Part shown: one piece after another, positions 6,006-35,326 of the stretch | Position numbering within the stretch: the first letter of the stretch is position 1 | Layout: the number at the start of each line of letters is the position of its first letter | DNA from: Lophium mytilinum | Lineage: Eukaryota | Assembly (NCBI GenBank): GCA_010093605.1 | Contig: MU004188.1 | Location: forward strand, 437,673-501,672 | Length of the DNA: 64,000 nt | Direction of reading: 5' to 3' | Made by a program: the position numbers and the translations under genes | Notes under the pieces: generated by a model | What the model saw: only the letters and a program-made list of their open reading frames with translations | What the model was told of the DNA's origin: nothing | Database searches by the model: none

Positions 6006-7784
6006 TTACACTACTCCTCCTCGTACACGGCCGGCCTCGAATTTGGCCACGATGTCCGGTACGTCCTCTCGTAGCTGCTTGACAGGTTCCTGCGATGTCT
6101 CGTCGTAGCCCTTCCATTTCACCTCGTACTTGTCTCCTCCCTTTGTCTTTATGCGGCGCAAAATCTTGTCCACTATCCATTTCTCGATCCCTTCCTCAAT
6201 GATTGGTGGTGGTGGAGTGTGAGAGTCAGACGACTCCTCGGAATCAGACTCTTCAGCTTCGGAATAGTGAGATTCTTCGGGACCAAGATCTACATCTTTA
6301 GGACACTTGAACTCTTCCGTAGGATCAAGATCTTCGTCTTCGGAATAGTCAGACTCCTCAAAAGAAGAAAAATCTTCATCTTCTTCTGTCCCTTCTTCCG
6401 CAGAGCCTGGCACCTCGTCGTGCCCCATTTCCCAGAGTTCGTAATCAAGTTCCCCATCGTCCTTCCTCGTGTCTTCAAGATGGCCCATCCAGCGGATCAC
6501 AACTTTGCAAGTCGGCGGAAAACGATCTCGGAGAAATTGACGAACGGCTTCCAATATCTTCTTGGGTCGATCGCCACTAAGCGCGAACTTCATGAACCGC
6601 AAGTCCCGCCCTTCGTGCGGAGGCGGCAGCACTTCAAACATATTGTGGCTATATTTCGTACTATCCTTCCGATTCATTTCCGATCTAAAGTTGATCTGGA
6701 GATAGCGTAGATGCTCCAGATTCTTCAGTCTCAGGAGGTCATACATTCCCGGAACGCTCAACTCCTTGCCGCGCAAGAGGAAGTCTTTCAGTGCGGGTTG
6801 CTCTGCGGCGAACATGTCCGTGAAGCTAAGCACCAATCTAAGCTGTTCCAACCTCTCGCATTCCTCGAGCAGTTGCAGTGAATGGATGAGCCGCTGCCCG
6901 GATAATGTCATGCGAGTGTTCCAGTCGAGTATACAGCCATTCTCTGTAAGGGGGATATCGGCATAATGACCATGGAGGATAAGGCGCTTCATGACCATTC
7001 GAGCTTCTAGTCCCGCAGCCTCTAAGAACCGGATCCATTGCAAATAGGCATGCTCAACATTTTCCTCATCAACGTGCACCCAGAACTCATTGTTTGCGTA
7101 AAAGAACGTGCGAGCTTCGTGGGAGATTTGGGGAACCCCAACCTGCATGATGTCCTTCAGGTTATCAACGCATTCGGCCCCTTCGGAACCGTTACTGAAG
7201 TCGAAGAGCATCATGAAGGTTTCTCCTTCGTCCCTCAGGTCATCATCTTCAGGCCTGAAATAGGAGATTGTGGTACCGCCTTCTTCGAGCGGTTCATGCC
7301 ACACTTGTGGGTCGGGCCGGGAGGCGAGTGAGTTCCAAAACGCTCGATCGGCCGCTGTTGCAGAGTCGTCGAGCAGTGGTATTGGCGGCAGCGGCAGGGA
7401 GCCGTTGTATGGGCCAACATCTAATTCTGATGCTAGCAGGAAGCTCTCGGAGTCGTTGTTGGCGAAGTCGACCTCGAGCTGGCAATTACCCTTGAGAAGC
7501 TCCCCGTAGATTTGGTTGCGAGTCTCCCCGGATAGGGCTAAAAGAAAGGGATTGCGAACAATATGTATACTCGTAGTCCCAAGAGTCGTTGCCTCGGTTG
7601 TAGTTTCAGGAGTCATCGCTTTGGCTGCAGTGTCCGGCTCCGAACGACGCAGTTTCTTGGATTGATGCTCGGAGTCAATGTTCACGGTGTCTGGTTCTGG
7701 CTCTGCTGGTCGCTTTGGTAGCGGCGCCGCAGATGAGGTGGACGCGGAGGCCCGGCGATTGTGAGAACGTGTAAGTGGTGCCAT
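6006..7784 (-). CDS. F-box-like protein with acidic linker and C-terminal chromodomain (592 aa)
   Basis: Intronless ORF with an N-terminal basic NLS-like region, an F-box-like helix (FLLALSGETRNQIYGELL) and an E/D/S-rich tract. C-terminus WIVDKILRRIKTKGGDKYEVKWKGYDETSQEPVKQLREDVPDIVAKFE matches the chromodomain pattern. Confidence 0.85.
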   Translation of the reverse strand: MAPLTRSHNRRASASTSSAAPLPKRPAEPEPDTVNIDSEHQSKKLRRSEPDTAAKAMTPETTTEATTLGTTSIHIVRNPFLLALSGETRNQIYGELLKGNCQLEVDFANNDSESFLLASELDVGPYNGSLPLPPIPLLDDSATAADRAFWNSLASRPDPQVWHEPLEEGGTTISYFRPEDDDLRDEGETFMMLFDFSNGSEGAECVDNLKDIMQVGVPQISHEARTFFYANNEFWVHVDEENVEHAYLQWIRFLEAAGLEARMVMKRLILHGHYADIPLTENGCILDWNTRMTLSGQRLIHSLQLLEECERLEQLRLVLSFTDMFAAEQPALKDFLLRGKELSVPGMYDLLRLKNLEHLRYLQINFRSEMNRKDSTKYSHNMFEVLPPPHEGRDLRFMKFALSGDRPKKILEAVRQFLRDRFPPTCKVVIRWMGHLEDTRKDDGELDYELWEMGHDEVPGSAEEGTEEDEDFSSFEESDYSEDEDLDPTEEFKCPKDVDLGPEESHYSEAEESDSEESSDSHTPPPPIIEEGIEKWIVDKILRRIKTKGGDKYEVKWKGYDETSQEPVKQLREDVPDIVAKFEAGRVRGGVV

Positions 7785-8502: not shown

Positions 8503-10431
8503 TTATTTCACCCGTTCTCCGATACTTGAGTCCTTTACCATAGCGGCATCGAGTGTTTCGGAGAAGATGTATTTCCTCCTGAAACAAACATGGCTAAACG
8601 CCAGAAGCCCACAAGCCGACCACCGTATATAGCTCACGCTTCGAAAGTGGTGTTGGCCGGCAAGATAAAGGTAGGCGAAAGCTTGCAGGAACTTTGGAAG
8701 CAGAAGCTCAACCGGAATTTGCCTCGCGGATCCCACAGTTTCAGGAGTTGCTAGATGCCTGCCCATCAAGCTTTCCCCCTCTTCGTCATGACTACGTCAA
8801 GTCAGAATAGCTGGTATGCAACAATCTTTAAAGCGCAAACTTACTTATGCTCTGGGAACCATCGCAACTAGGAATCAGTTGACTCAGCCAAACGCGTCAG
8901 ATCCCAGTGCTCGTCTCCCGAGTATTCCAGGTTAGCATCCGCCGTACTTGCTTGAAGAACGTTTAGCTCCCGAGAATACGAGTGACTCTTCACAGGGTTC
9001 CAGATAGCATGTTTCTTTGAGATGAGATCCTCGGATACCACGTACTCGCTTTTGAAGAAGCAGTCCTTGGAGAAGCGGGGCCGGTCTCCCACATTCAGAG
9101 TGATCATTACACTACGGAGGTTGCTCCTCTTACGATTTCTCATCCGGCTCATTATGACCTCAAAGATCATCCAGACAGCGTCAAACCCGGGGACTCCTTT
9201 TAGCTCCAGCTGATGTAGCTTGTCGTGGCCAGAAACATCAACCCATCTGCAACTTTGGAGGTTGATAGTCAAGTTCCGGAGATCAGGCATCTGGAATACA
9301 TGATTGAGCACGTTCACCCAATATGCGAAAAGGTAGTGCTTTGCGTTCGGTTCTTCATCCTCGTTTGTGCAGCGCACTGTCGCGTATTTCGTGAGATGTT
9401 GCGGGTCAAAATTGTCGATGTAGTTGTAGCAACGAGGTTTGCTATTCTGAGGTATCAAGGGCAACGTGAAGAAGAAATACATTTCGAACACTTGAATCTT
9501 GGAGAGCTGATAGCTGTTTAGCGGAAGGGTCCTGTGAAGGTTCTTGAGGGGAAATGTGAGGTTGGATGGCTCCCACCATGTGAACCTGTTGCAAGCGTAG
9601 AGCATTTCTCTAGCTTCGAGCCTGACTTGTTTAGTGACACGCAGAAGACTCCAATCCCTACCGGCGGCCTTGTAGAGAATTCTCCGTTCGTTATCATCCT
9701 CATCCTCATCATCCTTATAAGTGGGATAGAGGCTCACATATATCTCGCACGAGCTCATGACTGGAGCGTATATCTTGTCGCGTAGCTCTCGAGGCAGACT
9801 CAAGAAATTCGTTTCCATGCCGGTGACGAGGCTGCGATGAACTTTGGCTTCCGAGACTTCTACCTCGCCCACAAGCTGTTTGAGCTTCATGGCGAAGGCT
9901 TTCCGGTCCTTGATGGTCCCGGGTTTGAGGGAACGAATCGCCATATTGCGCGCCTCGGTCAGCAAGTCGATGAGCTGCCATTGATCCTCCGTGCCTTCAC
10001 TCCGATCGTAGCTGTCAGAGATCTGTTTACTGTTAGTGCTGTAATGATTGTGTACCGTCACACTCGCATACTGTTCTTCCACCGCTTGTAGTGTCTCATT
10101 TATTTCAGATGCCCGGGCCAGACGGATGTCTCGCCTTTTGAGTCACTAGTGAGTTGTTTGGGCTGCCCCGAACAGCGACAGAGGACTTTATACGGGCTTG
10201 GGAGTGTGCTCCGTTGCCCCTCTTCTGAAATAACATGAGACACCACAAGCGGCGGCAAGGAAGCGTGCGGAGCTCTACGACAGAGCATTGTATTCAGGAC
10301 GGATATAGGCTTACATCTTCCATCAGATTGGGTGGGGCCGCTGAACTGGTGACTTCATTTTTGTGACCGTTGTCGTCGGACGAGGACGAGATCTCGCTGT
10401 AGCGACGTCGCTTGGTGGACGGCTCATCCAT
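8503..10431 (-). CDS. F-box-like family A paralog 1, with an in-frame TAG at 8868-8870 (truncated allele or pseudogene)
   Basis: Main ORF 8868..10082 carries ETNFLSLPRELRDKIY. Probable first exon starts at ATG 10431 (MDEPSTKRRR...) with a GTAAGC donor; the 5' exon structure is unresolved. A downstream 53-nt intron (8844-8792) joins in frame to ORF 8503..8769. Confidence 0.7.
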
Positions 10432-10945
10432 ATCCCCGACCAGTGGCACCGGGTTGTTCCTCCTAGGGAGAAGGCGGAAAAGCTGCTGAGTGAAGGATGG
10501 GCTCCGTGTTCTGATTTCTGTGGTTGAAAGGAGATGATTGAAAGTGATACTAGGCCCGCTTGGGTGAAGAGCAAGCTCGCTGTGGAATAGGCAGCAGTAA
10601 AGCACAGCCCTTTCATGGTCACAAAGAGTGACATCGCTTCACTTGGCAAACTCGGCCCGGGACTTATATATCCGATGTTTAAGAAGCAATGATGGCATTC
10701 GGGGAATTGATTGGAAAAGGGGAAGAAGAAAAGAGAAATACTACCCCATTCTCGCTCCACACTAAGGGTAAAACCCTTAGGAATGTTGGAATGTAAAGCC
10801 TCAAACGACATCAGATGAGACAAACCCATCTGTAGTCTATATCATATCAGATCAATCAACCTCCTCCTAAGCGAGGATATAGGTTTCCGTATTTCAACAG
10901 GGAACTCCCAACTGACTGCTGCCATTGTAAATGAATTCCTTATTT

Positions 10946-12409
10946 TTAATAAAATAATGATGGCTTGACTTTCGCATACAATAAGAAAGTCAGCCGGCGA
11001 CGAAACGCAAGACGGCAATTGAGTTCTATATGCTCGAAGAACTCAGCGCGCTCCTGTTCACCCTCTGGTGCCTTCACAGGGACATCATATACACAATCAT
11101 ACTGGCAGTCCGCGCCACGCACAGGGAAGGGTTCGTTGATCCACCAGAAACCATCCGATTCAATCAGGTTCGAGCAACTCCATTCGTCATCAGCTGAGTA
11201 CTGCAAGTCACAATCCGCCGTGCTTGCTCTGAACTCGTCGATTCCGCTGAACTCGTCGGGCCCCCTGCTTGTTGGGCTCCATAACCCACGCGCCGTGGTA
11301 AGGACGTCGAAAGCGCATCTCATATCTTCTCCAGTATTCGCAAAATCATCCCCCACGCCCGAAGCCGTGACCACTATATTTCCTAAAGCGGACTTCTTTC
11401 TGTCCCGCATTCGAGTCATCAAGGCCTGTGCTGCTAAGAACTGGCCACCGAACTTGGGGACAAGGATTCCGGCATCATAAAGCGAGTCGTTTCGAAGAGC
11501 ATGACACCTATGTCGCGACCAGCTGCAATGCTGGAATCCGATGAACAGCTCCCGCAGAGCAGGCATCTTGAACACATGATCCAGCTTATTCACCCAGACG
11601 GCGAAAAGCCACAGATGCTGGTTCAACACGAGGCCTTTCGGCGTGGCGCATGCTCGGGCGTACTTTGCTCTACTCTGGGGAACCACGGCTTTGAGGTATC
11701 CCAGCTCAGTAGGGTCCTTTCGCCAGTATGAGATGTCGCCGCTAACTCCGAGTTGGAGTTCGTCATCGCTGGAGAGATTGATCTCAAGCAGCCTGATCAT
11801 GTCGAAAGCAGGGGTTGCGAGCGTTCGGTGAAAGTTGCGTAGTGAGAGCATATCATCGACTCGCCGCGGTGAGCGGGTCATATCCCATGTGCCCTCTGGG
11901 AACCGAGAATCTGCGAGCGGTATGTTGAAACCGTTGTGTTTGTAGAGATACTCTTCCGCTTCGTGTCTGACTTGTTTGCTGACACGTAGAAGATTTAATT
12001 CAACACCTGTCTCCTGACGGACACGTGATATGTCAAATGGAAAGAGACGTCTCTTTGACACCGGGATCTCATGCTCCTCGGCCGGAATCCAATGACTTTG
12101 TTCGCTTGAGAGCAGCACCGTGGCGTAGATTTGATCTCGTATTTCGCGGGGAAGACTTAAGAACGTTGTCTTAAGCCCTGAAACCATTGCATCATGCACT
12201 TTCGACTCCAGAACGATGATCTCACCTAGAAGCTGTCTAAGCTTCATCGCATCAGCTTTAGGGTATTTGAGGGCGTCAGGATTTAGGGCACGAATGGCTA
12301 AGCTGCGCGCCTGCGTGAGAAGATTTACGAGCTGCTGATTTTCTTCGGGTCCTCCATTTCCAAAGTCGCTATCCGAGACCTGTGTGTGAAATGTGGGTAC
12401 TGGTGACAT
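10946..12409 (-). CDS. F-box-like family A paralog 2 (487 aa)
   Basis: KTTFLSLPREIRDQIY. Shares QQLVNLLTQAR..., KLRQLLGEI, LLRVSKQVRHEA, WVNKLDHVFKMPAL, RMRDRKKS and ASTADCDLQYSAD with its neighbours. Confidence 0.85.
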   Translation of the reverse strand: MSPVPTFHTQVSDSDFGNGGPEENQQLVNLLTQARSLAIRALNPDALKYPKADAMKLRQLLGEIIVLESKVHDAMVSGLKTTFLSLPREIRDQIYATVLLSSEQSHWIPAEEHEIPVSKRRLFPFDISRVRQETGVELNLLRVSKQVRHEAEEYLYKHNGFNIPLADSRFPEGTWDMTRSPRRVDDMLSLRNFHRTLATPAFDMIRLLEINLSSDDELQLGVSGDISYWRKDPTELGYLKAVVPQSRAKYARACATPKGLVLNQHLWLFAVWVNKLDHVFKMPALRELFIGFQHCSWSRHRCHALRNDSLYDAGILVPKFGGQFLAAQALMTRMRDRKKSALGNIVVTASGVGDDFANTGEDMRCAFDVLTTARGLWSPTSRGPDEFSGIDEFRASTADCDLQYSADDEWSCSNLIESDGFWWINEPFPVRGADCQYDCVYDVPVKAPEGEQERAEFFEHIELNCRLAFRRRLTFLLYAKVKPSLFY

Positions 12410-13012
12410 CCTGTTCTTCTATTGAGTATCGTGCGTTCTTATTTCCAATCTTGCGGTTGTGGTGGTGGCGGTGAACTTTACATTAGGTATGCGTTGAAGC
12501 CTAGAGGTTACGACGTCTTGTCTCAGAACCGCTTACTAATACACCCAAATGCAGTAAAAGGTTGCTGGGCTTATAATACCTGAACACATGTAGATATCTA
12601 GCAGATGAGAAGAAGTAGGAGTCTACAGCAATGGCCTCCAGACATTTTTACCCAGCAAGGGACGTTCACCAGCCTAGAAAACTTAAAGCCCTTAAAGTAC
12701 CTGTAGCGTATTAATTGCGACGAAAAGCTCTTTGACTTGGAGCTTAGCTATGCAAGATCATGGACCCTTCTAAAATTAAGTAGATTGAAGTCGATCTTGC
12801 AATACTTGCTATGAGTGCAAGAAGCATAACTGGTTGAGGTGATTCTTGGAGTAGAACGCTTATCTGATAGAAAGTGCCAAATACACCCAAGTAAGATGTT
12901 TTATTGAGTTGATGATTGATACCTTGAGTAGTCCCAAACTGAGTACTCGGCTTCGAGAAGACCAGTGCGGGTTGTGTCCGTTTCTGTTGTTAGAGACCAT
13001 AACACCGAGAAT

Positions 13013-14641
13013 CTAGCCCCCATCCCCACCTGTTCCGCACGACACATCATTGACGGGAATAGCCGTCCCACTTCCAGAAAGTCCTTCTGATTCTGTGAGA
13101 TCCGAGTGACCCCAGTTCTCGTCAGCCGAATAGTTCAAGTCGCAATTCTCCGTAGTTGCCTCGAGCGGCATATCGATGCGCCGTCTTTCTGTCCACAGTC
13201 CAGGCATCTCGGATAAGTCGACCCTGCTGACACCAACCCGGATGCAGCCGAGGCCACTCTTCTTTCGATCTCTCATTCGACTCAAAATAATCTGCGTGGC
13301 TGCTCTCAAGGGATCGGGCTTAGGAGCTTCATGCGGCTTACCGATCCAACCACATACGCAGTACATATCGATGTCCAGATGTTTGAGAGCTGGCATCTTG
13401 AAAACATGATCGAGCTTGTTCACCCAAGTCGTGAAAAGCCAGAGATTGTTGTCCAAAACGGTACCATCAGGAGAACGGCATATGTGCGAATACTTAGTCA
13501 GGTAATGAGGATCGATCTTTTTGAGGTAGTTCAGTTCGGCAGATTTGAGATCCTCCGGATCCTCGGGGGCCTCCGCGTACCATCTAGGGTCGTCCGGTGA
13601 GCCGAGATGTATCTGCAAGCTTCGAATGTTGGCGAAAGCAGATGACGATAAGCTCAAATGAAACATTCCAAGCGTGCAACCGTCGTAGAACTCTCCGAAT
13701 TGCCGGTTCGGAAACGAGAAGTTGTTGTACTTGTAGAAGGTTTCTTCCGCTTCGAGTTTGACTTGTCGACTGGTACGTAGAAGGTTCATCACAATGCCTT
13801 CTCCCTCGAGTAGCTCCGAGCCATCGAACGGTACCAAGCCTCCTTCCTGTGCTTTCAACATAGCCAATCTCTCAGGGCCGATGCGATCGAACTCGATCAC
13901 TGGCTGCTCACTATCACTAACCGCGACTAGTGATAGTTTGTAGATCTCGTCTCGGATCTCACGGGGAAAACTGAAGAAAGTCGTTTCGTGGCCCGCGACT
14001 ACAATGTCGTGAACTTTTGGTTCCAGCATGCCAATTTCACCAAGAAGCTGTCTGAACCTCATGGCGTCCGCCTTCCGGTCCTCACTGGCCTCGTGTTCAA
14101 GGAAAGAGAAAGCCATGTCGCGTACCAGCGTGGTGAGTTCGACGAGTCGTTGTTGATCAGCCATATCTACATGGGCAGACGTGTTGACATTGCTGCTTGA
14201 GTCCTTGTATTCGTTAGGCATCTGAAATCAAGGTCCGAGCATGTTCCAACTTACAGCAGTAGCCTTGTACTGAGTGATCTCCCTCACTCCCGGCGGTGCT
14301 GTTGAGATTGTGTCTGGGTCTACCGACTGCATGGCCTCCCCGTCTACGATTGCACGATCGTTGATGTCGGACTCAGTATAGGTCCCACCGAAGCAAGGGC
14401 GCTTATTTGATGGTGCTGCTTTTCTTCCCGCTTCCGTCGCGACGGCACCCAGTCCAGTGCTAGGCGAGATTGATGGTAGCGGCGTTGATGTCCTTGGCTT
14501 GCGTTTTGACGGCGGCTGCGTAGTGTTGTAGCGCTGCTCATGTGGGGTACCGCAAATGTGTGTGTCCTTGCGAGGTACTTCCTCCAGGTTTGCATCGTGC
14601 GGCGCGTTCGCCATGCTGCCTCCAGCGCCAAAGCTTGCCAT
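13013..14641 (-). CDS. F-box-like family A paralog 3 (main ORF 13013..14221 plus probable 5' exon from 14641)
   Basis: ETTFFSFPREIRDEIY plus the same family motifs. ORF 14228..14641 is in the same frame, separated by TGA TTT CAG. A phase-0 intron ending at 14222 would remove the stop. Confidence 0.8.
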
Positions 14642-21985: not shown

Positions 21986-22403
21986 GAGAACCAAGCCGGC
22001 CGGGCGGGCTTTTGGAGAATCTTCGTACTATCTATACGAATAACGAGGATATCTAGGTTCTATGGACGTTTGTAACAGCATTTGCATACACAGCCAACCA
22101 CGCGAACGAAAGAGAATGAATCGTCGCAGCATGGAGATACCAACATAGAAGCAACGCGATTTTGCGCGGCCTCCGCGAAAGTTTTGTATAGAGCAATGCT
22201 TCGATGAGACTAGCATTAGACACGGTAATTATAGATTTGCGCTCACGATGTGCATATCTATCTACACCCTGGTTTCTTTAAATATCAAGTGATTTCACGT
22301 CTACCTTAGAAATCCATCCACCTTTCAAAAATTTCTAGAGAGTTCTGAATATAGAAAGAATGCTGTGCCATCGCCGAGAATTGAACCTAGTTCAACAGAC
22401 AGC

Positions 22404-22540
22404 AAAAACTCGGGCCTAAGCCCTACAAAAACCCCTTGGTGCACGCAGGGGATTTGATTAGAGGATTTGAACTGCAGGATCAGCTAGATCCTGTTGTACT
22501 GTCTTACTAATAAGGCAGCACCCGGAGTGGGACTGGCTGC
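22404..22540 (-). ncRNA. Putative Pol III structured RNA, unit 1 (family not recognised)
   Basis: TATATA at ~22556-22562. Hairpins include CAGGATC-5nt-GATCCTG and GGGC-TTAG-GCCC. T5 run at 22404-22408 and B-box GGTTCAATTC at 22378-22387. Confidence 0.6.
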
Positions 22541-22659
22541 CTCGAGTATTTTGACATATATACCTCATGTCAAAGTCGACAAGTGAAGATAATTGGCTCG
22601 AGGAAAAAGCAAAAAGAAAGATGCCAACCCCACGATTCGAACACAGATCTATGAGCGGC

Positions 22660-22800
22660 AAAAAACTCGGGCCGAAGCCCTACAAAAACCCCTGGTACAA
22701 GCAGGAAGTTTTTAGGTTCTAGTTGGGCCGCTGCAGAGAACCTGCAGCGGGCAAATAGAAGACTCACGAATGAGGCAGCCCCCCGAAAGGGACTGGCTGC
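22660..22800 (-). ncRNA. Putative Pol III structured RNA, unit 2
   Basis: TATATATA at ~22815-22822. Hairpins GCAGCC..CCC-TTTC-GGG..GGCTGC, CCGCTGCAG-5nt-CTGCAGCGG, AAAAACTTCCTG..CAGGGGTTTTT and GGGC-TTCG-GCCC. T6 at 22660-22665 and B-box TGTTCGAATC at 22634-22643. Confidence 0.65.
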
Positions 22801-22902
22801 GCCGAATGTTTAGGTATATATACCTACCGTAAGGACAATTTTACAATTGATTAACAACTATAATGAAGGCATGCGATCCACGATTCATGCCCTCTAAAAC
22901 GC

Positions 22903-23002
22903 AGAAGGCTCGGGCCGAAATCCTACAATAACCCCTTGGTACACATAAAGAATCTTCTAGGTCCTAGATAAGTTTCTCAGCGCCTTTACGGGGACTAGGT
23001 GC
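22903..23002 (-). pseudogene. Degenerate unit 3 of the RNA array
   Basis: Retains GTACCAAGGGGTTATTGTAGGATTTCGGCCCGAG. TATA is mutated (TATGTGCA), hairpin 2 is deleted, and the T-run and B-box are disrupted. Confidence 0.55.
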
Positions 23003-23119
23003 GCTAAAATCTAATGCACATACCCACCCACCAAGCATTAAGACTTGATTGATCAATCACCGCCTAAAACAGAAAGAGAGACGTCCACCCTGCGAATCGA
23101 ACCTAGACCCACGAGAGGC

Positions 23120-23255
23120 AAAAAACTCAAGCAGAAGCCTGAGAAAACCCTCAAGCGAGGATTTTTTTAAAATGGTTTGGGAGGTTGCGGGTAATCCGCA
23201 ACCTCAACGACCACAGACTCGTAACCATTGAGCCCGGCCCCGAAGGGCGGTGGCG
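23120..23255 (-). ncRNA. Putative Pol III structured RNA, unit 4
   Basis: TATAAAAA at 23272-23279, 31 nt before GCCC-TTCG-GGGC. A-box-like GGGCTCAATGG at 23225-23235. Hairpins GAGGTTGCGG-5nt-CCGCAACCTC, AAAATCCTC-GCTT-GAGGGTTTT and CTCAGGC-TTCT-GCTTGAG. T6 at 23120-23125 and B-box GGTTCGATTC at 23094-23103. Confidence 0.65.
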
Positions 23256-23519
23256 GCGCTGAATATCTGGGTTTTTATACTTAGTGGTGAGATCAGGTGA
23301 TAGGATCGTTTCTTATTTTACTAAGTACGAATTTCCTTCTCACATAGAAACCGAATCTCGGCTTAAGGTTACAACGATTTGCACTAGCTTGTTACAATAA
23401 CTTACTGGGCAAGATGTCGCTTTTTCAGTTGTCTTCTCACTTCAAATGGTTAGCTAATAGATCTTAATAGACCCTTTTATAAAGCTATTCCTATATCCTG
23501 ATTGATACCTCCCTTAAGG

Positions 23520-32947: not shown

Positions 32948-35326
32948 TCAGGATGGGACTGGCTGCACCTCTAACGCGGCACCATCGTCCTGTATAGTGA
33001 CCTTTGCAACATCACCCCCTTTGACCTCACCACGGATGATCTTGTCCGCAAGCCCGTTCCCGATTTGCTTCGCGATCAGGCGATTGAGGGGACGGGCGCC
33101 GAACCTGGGGTCGTATCCTCGGTCACAAAGCCATTGCTTCACGTTATCAGATACGTCCAGAGTGATGCGACGATCATCCAGTCGCTGCTGCAACTCTTTC
33201 AATCGAATGTCTACGATGTCACGAAGAGCTGCACGGGAAAGTCTTCGGAAGAGAATAAACTCGTCGATACGATTCAGGAACTCAGGGGGGTATGAGGAGG
33301 CCACAACGTCCATCACAGCTTCCTTGGTCTTTGGAGAAATCTGATCATCATCTTCAGGAGTCTTAGATCTGTGAAGCATGTCTTCGCCAACGATGATGTC
33401 GGCTCCTAAATTCGAAGTCAAGACGATAATTGTGTTCCGGAAATCGATCTTGTGGCCTTGAGAGTCGGTCAAGAAACCCTCGTCGAGGACCTGGAGAAGG
33501 AGCGCCGATATGTCGCGATGAGCTTTTTCGAACTCATCAAACAACAACACTGCGTAAGGCTTTCTTCGAACAGCCTCGGTGAGTTGTCCCGCATCGTCGT
33601 ATCCAACATAGCCTGCAGGACTTCCTATGAGCCTGCTTATCGTGTGTTTTTCCTGGAATTCGCTCATATCAAACCGGACGACGGCTGTTTCGGTGGAGAA
33701 GAGGAAGTTTGCCATTTTCTTGCACAGCTCGGTCTTGCCAACACCAGTCGGGCCCAAGAACATGAAGCTAGCTAGAGGGCGGTTGTCTCCACTGAGTCCT
33801 GCTCGCTGCATACGAACAGCATTGGCGACCGCTGTTAGGGCTTCGTCCTGACCGCGCACGTGCTGTCGAAGAGACTCTTCCATATGGATCAGCTTTTCGA
33901 CCTCGCCTGCCATGAGCTTTGTGACTGGGATGCCAGTCGTTCGGCTCACAACACCAGCGATATCATCTGCGGTGACGGAGTCGTGTATGAGCGTGTCGGA
34001 TGATTTTCCACCAGCGTCGTCCTCGCTTTGCAACTTGCGTTCGAGTTCCGGGATCTGCGAATACCTCAGCTCGCCGGCTCTACCAAAGTTTCCTTCTCGC
34101 TGGGCTTTCTCAAGCTCAAGCTTCGCCTTTTCCAAATTCTCTTGTGCATTCTTGATTTCTTCGATCTCGGCCCGCTCCTTTTCCCACTTGTCCATCAAGG
34201 TCTTGACCTCCTCTTGCTTTGATTTGAGGGTGCTCTCTAGCTTTTCCCGTCTCTCTTTACTAGCTATGTCGGTCTCTTTGCGCAGCGACTCAAGCTCAAT
34301 TTGAATAGTCATAATCTGTCGATCAAGCTCTTGGATTGCATCTGGTTTACTTTCTTGTTGCAAACGGAGCGCACTGGCCGCTTCGTCCACCAGATCGATA
34401 GCTTTGTCTGGAAGGAAGCGATCGGTTATGTAGCGATTACTATATGTCGCAGCAGCGACAAGAGCCCCATCGGTTATTCGCACACCGTGGTGAACTTCGT
34501 ATCGCTCCTTGATGCCTCGAAGAATGGATATCGTATCCGGAACACTCGGCTCGCCGACAATGACAGGCTGAAACCTCCTCGCAAGGGCCACATCTTTCTC
34601 AATCATCCTATATTCGTTGAGCGTAGTAGCACCGCAGCATTGCAGCTCTCCGCGGGAAAGAGCGGGCTTTAGAAGATTGCTGGCATCAATGCTGCCTTCC
34701 GCTTTGCCTAGGCCCAGCAAAATATGTAGCTCATCGACGAAAAGTATAACACCACCCTTCGCATCTTCCACTTCCTTCAACACCTTCTTAAGCCTCTCTT
34801 CAAAGTCTCCTCGAAACTTAGCTCCAGCTATGAGCTGGCCCAGGTCCAACGAGATCACCCGTTTCTCCTTTATAGACTCTGGCACATCGCCCTGCACAAT
34901 TCTTTGCGCGAGACCCTCAAGAATAGCTGTTTTCCCTGTGCCCGCAGCTCCAATCAGAACTGGGTTGTTCTTCGTCCGTCGCGATAGAATCTGTATTGTG
35001 CGGTGTATCTCGGCGGCTCTTCCAATTACGGGATCTAGTTTTCCGTCCCTTGCGCGCGCGGTGAGGTCGACGCCGTATTCTTCTAACGCAGACTTCTCGG
35101 GCTCGCCACCCAAGTCCATTCGATGGGTACCACCTGGGGGTTGCGGTCGACCCCTAGCGTAGAATCGCGCGGCTGTTGTTGGTAACAAACCATTGCTTGA
35201 GAAGATCGGTCTGATCGAGACAGGATGGGTATATAGGGCGGAAGCGCGGGCAGCTTGTAATCTAGAGGTCCTTGGAAGAGGTGTTGAGAGCCGTCTTGCA
35301 GCAACTTGCGCTCTGCTGGACAACAT
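32948..35326 (-). CDS. HSP78: Mitochondrial ClpB-type disaggregase
   Basis: Two AAA+ modules ([16 protein letters not shown]), coiled-coil middle domain, SPAGYVGY pore loop, a presequence, and no Clp N-domain. Confidence 0.95.

Follow-up and report, generated by a model that had tools for sequence, protein, structure and literature searches.

To our knowledge, few Pol III-type RNAs have been described in filamentous fungi beyond tRNA, 5S, U6, SRP and RNase P/MRP RNAs. Y RNAs and vault RNAs are small families of Pol III paralogues with a freely evolving part between conserved modules, and conserved modules around such a part are likewise known from RUF6 of Plasmodium. At the vertebrate MALAT1-mascRNA locus, the 3′ end is formed by RNase P cleavage at a tRNA-like element. 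Among the promoter elements referred to below, the B box is described by the pattern GGTTCRANTC and the intragenic A block by the consensus TRGCNNAGTGG. RUF6 is treated as a Pol III gene family in PMC9670795. The layout of the Saccharomyces cerevisiae gene SNR6 consists of an upstream TATA box, a terminator and a downstream B block (PMC5855946). Pol III can transcribe microRNA-like RNAs (milRNAs) of Neurospora, some of which have TATA-like promoters or, as in the case of milR-4, a link to tRNA processing (PMC3547838); a background statement on Pol III-made milRNAs in an earlier note on the present locus, made from its letters alone, is thus correct in the light of that source.

The locus analysed here is located in a 64,000-nucleotide stretch of the Lophium mytilinum genome, which as a whole is referred to as the window. 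Four head-to-tail units with a spacing of ~200–260 bp occupy positions 22366–23279 on the minus strand, which is the sense strand of the cluster and also the strand of the hairpin letters quoted in the earlier note. A profile built from the four units matches all of them at E-values between 1e-34 and 2e-57 and reveals no fifth unit in the 64-kb window, and Tandem Repeats Finder reported no repeat. The cluster is placed in an intergenic gap downstream of a rhomboid gene and a thioesterase-fold gene. Units 1, 2 and 4 appear intact. Unit 3 (22880..23024, minus strand) is a degenerate copy with alignable remnants of the 5′ hairpin H1 and of the 3′ module, a shortened slot at the place of the second large hairpin (H2), and neither TATA box nor T-run nor B-box. 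We favour with moderate confidence the interpretation, drawn from sequence, that the cluster comprises three intact genes and one decayed gene of a small multicopy structured-RNA family with SNR6-like Pol III signals and an H2 hairpin of conserved shape.

The candidate promoter and terminator signals of the intact units are positioned with little tolerance. TATA boxes were found by pattern match in 3 of 3 intact units, at 22556..22562 in unit 1, 22815..22822 in unit 2 and 23272..23279 in unit 4 (all on the minus strand). Their first T lies exactly 28 nt upstream of a conserved A in each case (22534 in unit 1), which, judged from the usual TATA-to-start distance, is the likely transcription start. 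The distance from the TATA box to H1 is 24 nt in all three units, and that to the B-box is 175, 179 and 176 nt in units 1, 2 and 4, respectively. The last hairpin, H4, is followed by a terminal run of T5, T6 and T6 in the same order, and from this run to the end of the B-box 26 nt are counted in every intact unit. The B-block-like element, ~148–151 nt from the putative +1, is found just past the terminator. The strict B-box pattern is present in units 1 (22378–22387) and 4 (23094–23103), which provide the only two matches on both strands of the 64-kb window, and the B-box-like element of unit 2 (22634–22643) carries one mismatch to it. The best A-block-like matches are located at +18, +18 and +17 and agree with the consensus in 6, 6 and 7 of its 9 specified positions, which is not significant because a score of at least 6 is reached somewhere by 1764 of 2000 shuffled sequences. 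The Lophium units have in common with SNR6 a TATA box situated about 30 nt ahead of the start, a T-run as terminator and the location of the B block beyond the coding region. They differ in that the B block, 26 nt past the terminator, is embedded in a tRNA-like minihelix, that an A block is not demonstrable, and that the units are multicopy and arranged in tandem. Moreover, the RNA of SNR6 is U6, whereas that of the Lophium units is not, as indicated by the lack of an Rfam match.

The predicted RNAs, all encoded on the minus strand, have a length of 131 nt in unit 1 (22404..22534, with the final T5 at 22404–22408), 135 nt in unit 2 (22660..22794, ending in T6 at 22660–22665) and 132 nt in unit 4 (23120..23251, ending in T6 at 23120–23125), the latter being the most diverged paralogue. 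Each is predicted to fold into a row of five local hairpins, termed H1, H1b, H2, H3 and H4, followed by a U tail. H1 constitutes the 5′ end and, in units 2 and 4, carries a UUCG-type loop as its cap, H1b is a mini hairpin, and in H3 an A-run is paired with a U-run beneath a GC-rich top. The deduced 5′ end of the unit 1 RNA might be situated up to about 7 nt further upstream; a longer H1, starting 6–7 nt more upstream, folds well too, so that the 5′ ends given are provisional. Folding of the predicted RNA gave z-scores of −2.7 to −3.2 for unit 2 and −5.6 for unit 4 (0 of 200 shuffles equally good), and the whole-unit folds reached −2.6, −3.2 and −4.5. Between the units, the modules H1, H3 and H4-tail show sequence identities of 0.63–0.88, in contrast to 0.46–0.54 for the spacers upstream of the TATA boxes, which corresponds to the level of shuffled sequences. 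The part with the highest conservation comprises H4, the U tail and the 3′ strand of H3. Pairing is seen in 82% of the 79 cells of the four scaffold helices, compared to 39–62% when the partners are slid by 1–3 columns, and 4 of 27 pairs are changed on both sides, a value equalled by 15 of 500 shuffles. The test comprises three sequences, one of which supplied the structure, and lends modest support to the modelled RNA structure of the scaffold.

The family does not coincide with a named RNA. Rfam 15 yielded no match at the gathering score in the whole window and only chance-level sub-threshold matches (E-values up to 10) when the cluster and units 2 and 4 were searched, and ARAGORN found no tRNA. 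Known small RNAs, i.e. snRNAs including U6, snoRNAs, SRP, RNase P/MRP, 7SK, Y, vault, 5S and tRNA, were rejected as candidates in view of the missing covariance-model match. Searches of open-access literature revealed no description of a matching fungal Pol III RNA or of its motif letters, and the family is not among the 15 fungal motifs of PMC5640933. With Y RNAs, vault RNAs and RUF6 it has in common the organization as a multicopy structured-RNA family with conserved ends and a variable middle. It is distinguished from Y and vault RNAs by the lack of any Rfam sequence or model match and by its row of local hairpins without a closing terminal stem. As far as can be judged from these features, the putative genes are similar to SNR6 in architecture and to the small Pol III paralogue families in family structure, and the family is a member of neither.

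A run of five T residues is found not only at the end but also within the predicted RNA of units 1 and 2 (22427–22431 and 22684–22688, minus strand), on the 3′ side of H3 opposite the A-run with which it is paired, while only T4 is present at the corresponding H3 site of unit 4. Judged from its position, the internal T5 may give rise to a shorter RNA form or participate in a U-A-U triple with the terminal U tail. If T5 acts as a terminator for fungal Pol III, some of the RNA ends behind H3; otherwise unit 1, whose final run is T5 too, must be read through at its end. Against the SNR6-type gene model it has to be held that the internal T5 of units 1 and 2 should stop part of the Pol III transcription and that unit 1 ends in T5 only, and likewise that the A-block score is at shuffled level and that the structure rests on three sequences.

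The most conspicuous component of the units is H2. Its slot comprises 47 nt in unit 1 (22456..22502), 49 nt in unit 2 (22714..22762) and 49 nt in unit 4 (23169..23217), all on the minus strand, and contains a perfect stem of 7, 9 and 10 bp, respectively, each with a 5-nt loop (22475–22493, 22728–22750 and 23181–23205). Separate folding of the slots yields 10, 17 and 15 bp in total at z-scores of −2.8, −5.1 and −6.8. The earlier note had described a perfectly paired hairpin with a 5-nt loop and a sequence unrelated between the units, which extends into an imperfect stem in units 2 and 4; both observations hold, as the perfect stems do reside in homologous slots and the extensions account for the 17 and 15 bp of the latter two. 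When perfect stems of at least 7 bp with loops of 3–8 nt are counted as a class, the 64-kb window contains 23 distinct hairpins, of which the three homologous slots, with 145 bases in total, contain three instead of the expected 0.045 (Poisson P 1.5e-5). The attribute "always paired" in the earlier note is valid for the 3 intact units but not for unit 3, the slot of which folds at a z-score of −0.11 with 81 of 200 shuffles equally good, so that pairing is kept in 3 of 4 units.

The identity of the H2 slots between the units is 0.49–0.55, compared to 0.53 for shuffled sequences, and the slot sequences are therefore unrelated. The term "hypervariable", also used in the earlier note, has nevertheless to be abandoned, because the variability of the slot does not exceed that of the untranscribed spacers, both being at shuffled identity. 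Equal divergence of slot and spacers implies that the slot is free in sequence and that the paralogues are old and saturated. What remains fixed in H2 is its place, its length and its pairing. This combination of fixed length, kept pairing and free sequence fits the alternative that the earlier note had itself offered, namely selection on helix shape only. The H2 pattern thus supports, at the level of sequence comparison, a signature of selection on helix geometry in which the letters are free. The hexamer CTGCAG common to the slots of units 1 and 2 was dismissed, as its occurrence is, by estimate, expected by chance for two 48-nt sequences. Outside the slots, the only other perfect hairpin of the window whose stem reaches 9 bp or more (10 bp, 8-nt loop) is found at 13910–13937, inside an open reading frame at 13013–14221.

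The earlier note had primarily interpreted the slot as exchangeable and guide- or milRNA-like. According to this idea, the scaffold would act as a delivery vehicle and H2 as an exchangeable precursor, cut into small guide RNAs whose specificity differs from paralogue to paralogue. The presence of three different perfect hairpins in one slot of a Pol III-like unit, the Neurospora precedent outlined above and the arm lengths of about 19–22 nt in units 2 and 4 speak in its favour. Beyond that, the cluster resembles the milR-1 and milR-4 loci of Neurospora crassa as an intergenic fungal hairpin locus with TATA-like elements and poly-T runs. However, by description rather than by sequence comparison, the Lophium hairpin differs from the milR loci in being one short arm (10–17 bp) of a larger conserved five-hairpin RNA. 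With 10, 17 and 15 bp the slot helices are short for a Dicer-type precursor and fall below the duplex of about 19–25 nt that characterizes fungal milRNA precursors, and the 10-bp helix of unit 1 precludes a duplex of about 20 nt from that unit. Furthermore, the slot diverges just as the neutral spacers do. None of the six 20-nt arms has a near match, i.e. one with at most 3 mismatches, in the remaining 63 kb, the best match being as good as that of shuffled arms, in a search of low power confined to the window. The prior for any such locus is also lowered by the finding that, of 1727 published fungal milRNA loci, less than half satisfy basic criteria, as stated in PMC9757828. Taken together, short helices, spacer-level divergence and the absence of in-window targets above chance leave the guide reading without support, and we consider it very unlikely.

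The H2 pairs are of Watson-Crick type in 41 of 42 cases compared to 60 of 67 in the other helices, with 1 of 42 and 7 of 67 G-U pairs, respectively; the lower share of G-U pairs in H2 does not reach significance (Fisher P 0.15). Template switching could create or repair perfect stems (PMC8794818, PMC10710096), and since the G-U deficit is not significant the idea is without direct support here. It is a component of the most far-reaching scenario, according to which the about ten genes would be hairpin cassettes with a fixed Pol III-type scaffold, a 3′ end made by the terminator together with an RNase P-cleavable minihelix, and a slot helix that confers specificity, be it as a released small RNA or through recognition by a helix-specific partner, with new specificities arising by template-switch rewriting. 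To this conjecture we attach very little probability.

A free sequence of the slot would also be accounted for if the variable stretch were a spliceosomal intron in a small-RNA gene, as fungal U6 genes can contain introns (PMC5855946). Hexamers similar to 5′ splice sites indeed occur just before the slot in units 1 and 2, and unit 2 offers a CAG ahead of the conserved G-run about 76 nt downstream, which is a usual length of fungal introns. But unit 4 has no GU-type 5′ site at this position and a GAG at the 3′ side, unit 1 has an AAG there, and by eye no good branch-site consensus common to the units is discernible. An intron would, moreover, not need a perfect hairpin of fixed length. We therefore regard the intron as extremely unlikely.

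The family extends beyond the cluster. In the organism's own DNA runs, a 33-nt 3′ core composed of the 3′ strand of H3, H4 and the T-run was recovered from at least five other contigs with 0–7 differences. One contig carries the core twice at a distance of 252 nt, which implies at least one more tandem pair. The number of copies elsewhere in the genome is thereby at least six, and the family totals about ten. One dispersed copy aligns over about 20 nt from the conserved A onwards and has a TATA-like box at the equal upstream distance, while its middle gives no alignment at 80% likeness. The DNA runs may be the source of the window itself and hence give copy number only, not an independent confirmation. 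The 3′ core pattern gave no matches in metagenome contigs, prokaryotic genome contigs and viral contigs; these collections are not where fungal relatives are expected and are uninformative on conservation. In relaxed form the pattern retrieved 2 matches from the metagenome contigs, both in AT-rich bacterial coding sequence and attributable to chance.

These copies bear on the question whether the units might be no working genes at all but a decaying short repeat or SINE-like element, the hairpins of which are DNA palindromes without RNA function. In favour of this, unit 3 is clearly decayed, the family is dispersed, and the H2 stems, being almost purely Watson-Crick, are palindromes in DNA as well. 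Against such a decay, promoter parts that are not transcribed have been kept at exact distances while the spacers were randomised, the slot hairpins persist after complete turnover of their sequence, and the copy number is about ten. The TATA-like box lies outside the transcript and yet travels with the copies, including the dispersed one, as retroposition would not allow; it speaks for gene duplication at the DNA level and against retroposed SINEs. A tRNA-derived SINE in particular was rejected on account of a B-box located after the T-run, the lack of a significant A box and an upstream TATA box kept in the tandem copies and one dispersed copy. The decaying repeat is in our estimation distinctly unlikely, although the finding would shrink to exactly this if the RNA is not expressed.

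The sequence directly behind the T-run deserves separate consideration. Beginning at the first base past this run, each of the three intact units contains a 38-nt segment reminiscent of the acceptor and T-arm of a tRNA, which harbours the B-box or B-box-like element and extends over 22366..22403 in unit 1, 22622..22659 in unit 2 and 23082..23119 in unit 4 (minus strand). When compared with the geometry of a 7-bp acceptor stem, a 6-nt link, a 5-bp T stem, a 7-nt T loop and a discriminator base, 10, 11 and 8 of the 12 stem positions are pairable, respectively, and only 0.17% of all window positions reach a value of 10 or more. Many of these pairs are G-U and count in RNA only. A tRNA gene was rejected, as solely the acceptor and T-arm are present, the D and anticodon arms are missing and ARAGORN reports none. 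In view of its sequence the segment may be a decayed tRNA gene kept as TFIIIC site; by analogy, it may alternatively act as a signal for RNase P/Z, by which read-through transcripts are trimmed back to the U tail.

In the latter case, the T-run would not be the terminator, or not the sole one; Pol II or a read-through Pol III would enter the minihelix, and RNase P would cut on its 5′ side, leaving an end of the type ...UUUUU. This scenario would make use of the pairability given above and of the fact that the segment abuts the T-run in all three units. The further T4–5 runs downstream of the tRNA-like segments, among them two T5 runs 7–18 nt downstream in unit 2, also speak for it, as does the internal T5, which implies read-through of T5 in any case. 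On the other hand, the 40-nt segments fold weakly (z-scores of −2.1, −1.1 and −0.5) without adopting the tRNA-like form, ARAGORN is negative, inspection revealed no pair changed on both sides between the units, and a decaying tRNA gene retained only as TFIIIC site would look identical. Because the free-energy folds do not favour the tRNA-like form, 3′ end formation by RNase P is ranked second, as an unlikely alternative to the SNR6-type unit with a terminating T-run. The corresponding vertebrate locus, MALAT1-mascRNA, is similar in that its mature 3′ end is immediately followed by a tRNA-like structure and has U- and A-rich tracts nearby. It differs from the Lophium element, which amounts to a weak acceptor/T-arm minihelix after a Pol III-type T-run, with a putative cleavage.

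Based on the SNR6-type gene model, we propose the following scenario. The small multicopy family would encode an undescribed structured RNA of about 130–135 nt in a filamentous ascomycete, each gene being, according to its sequence signals, a TATA-dependent Pol III unit of the SNR6 type. The 3′ strand of H3, H4 and the U tail might serve as a sequence-specific protein-binding platform of an RNP, from which H2 would project as a helical arm that is constrained in length (a slot of 47–49 nt) and pairing but not in its letters. In old paralogues every unconstrained base would have been turned over, and it is this age which makes H2 look unrelated between copies and leaves the protein-binding modules still alignable. 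The near-perfect Watson-Crick stems of H2 would be kept by compensatory change and possibly also be remade by template switching in replication. The larger result would accordingly not be the slot but an apparently undescribed multicopy small-RNA gene family that combines SNR6-like Pol III signals with a tRNA-like tail element. If expressed, an RNA of ~130 nt that is multicopy, strongly structured and transcribed from a promoter of its own would represent a new RNP component to be sought. Such a gene would likewise amount to a compact native Pol III cassette, in which TATA box, terminator and B-block are accommodated within less than 260 bp, of possible use for the expression of guide RNAs in such fungi. 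The cluster, finally, provides a clean natural case in which the letters of a helix have been turned over fully, with pairing and length fixed.

Several observations concern the surroundings of the cluster. From a run that is only guessed to be RNA, a contig of 405 nt at a depth of 5 covers 22867–23271 and hence units 3 and 4, and no contig of the same run covers units 1 and 2; the 405-nt contig reaches ~20 nt upstream of the predicted start, its strand is not assignable, and nothing was drawn from it. A contig of high depth (about 1317), also from a run guessed to be RNA, covers 22000–22331 of the window and stops exactly at 22331 beside a T5/A5 run. This contig end, which is about 35 nt away from the tRNA-like segment of unit 1, probably marks the mRNA 3′ end of the thioesterase-fold gene upstream. 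The window further encodes a fungal-specific transcription factor domain, 2EXR/DUF7730 proteins and a ClpB/Hsp78-type chaperone. The chaperone is mitochondrial in type and comprises 792 aa (32948–35326, minus strand), and an exact copy of an H1 12-mer at 32955–32966 was rejected as a further unit, as it resides within this coding sequence and is a chance match. Three adjacent paralogous genes of 358, 487 and 402 aa with common motifs are found at 8868–14221 on the minus strand; their matches to 2EXR/DUF7730 are weak and stay under the Pfam cut-offs. A fourth open reading frame, at 6006–7784, carries a chromo domain at its end.
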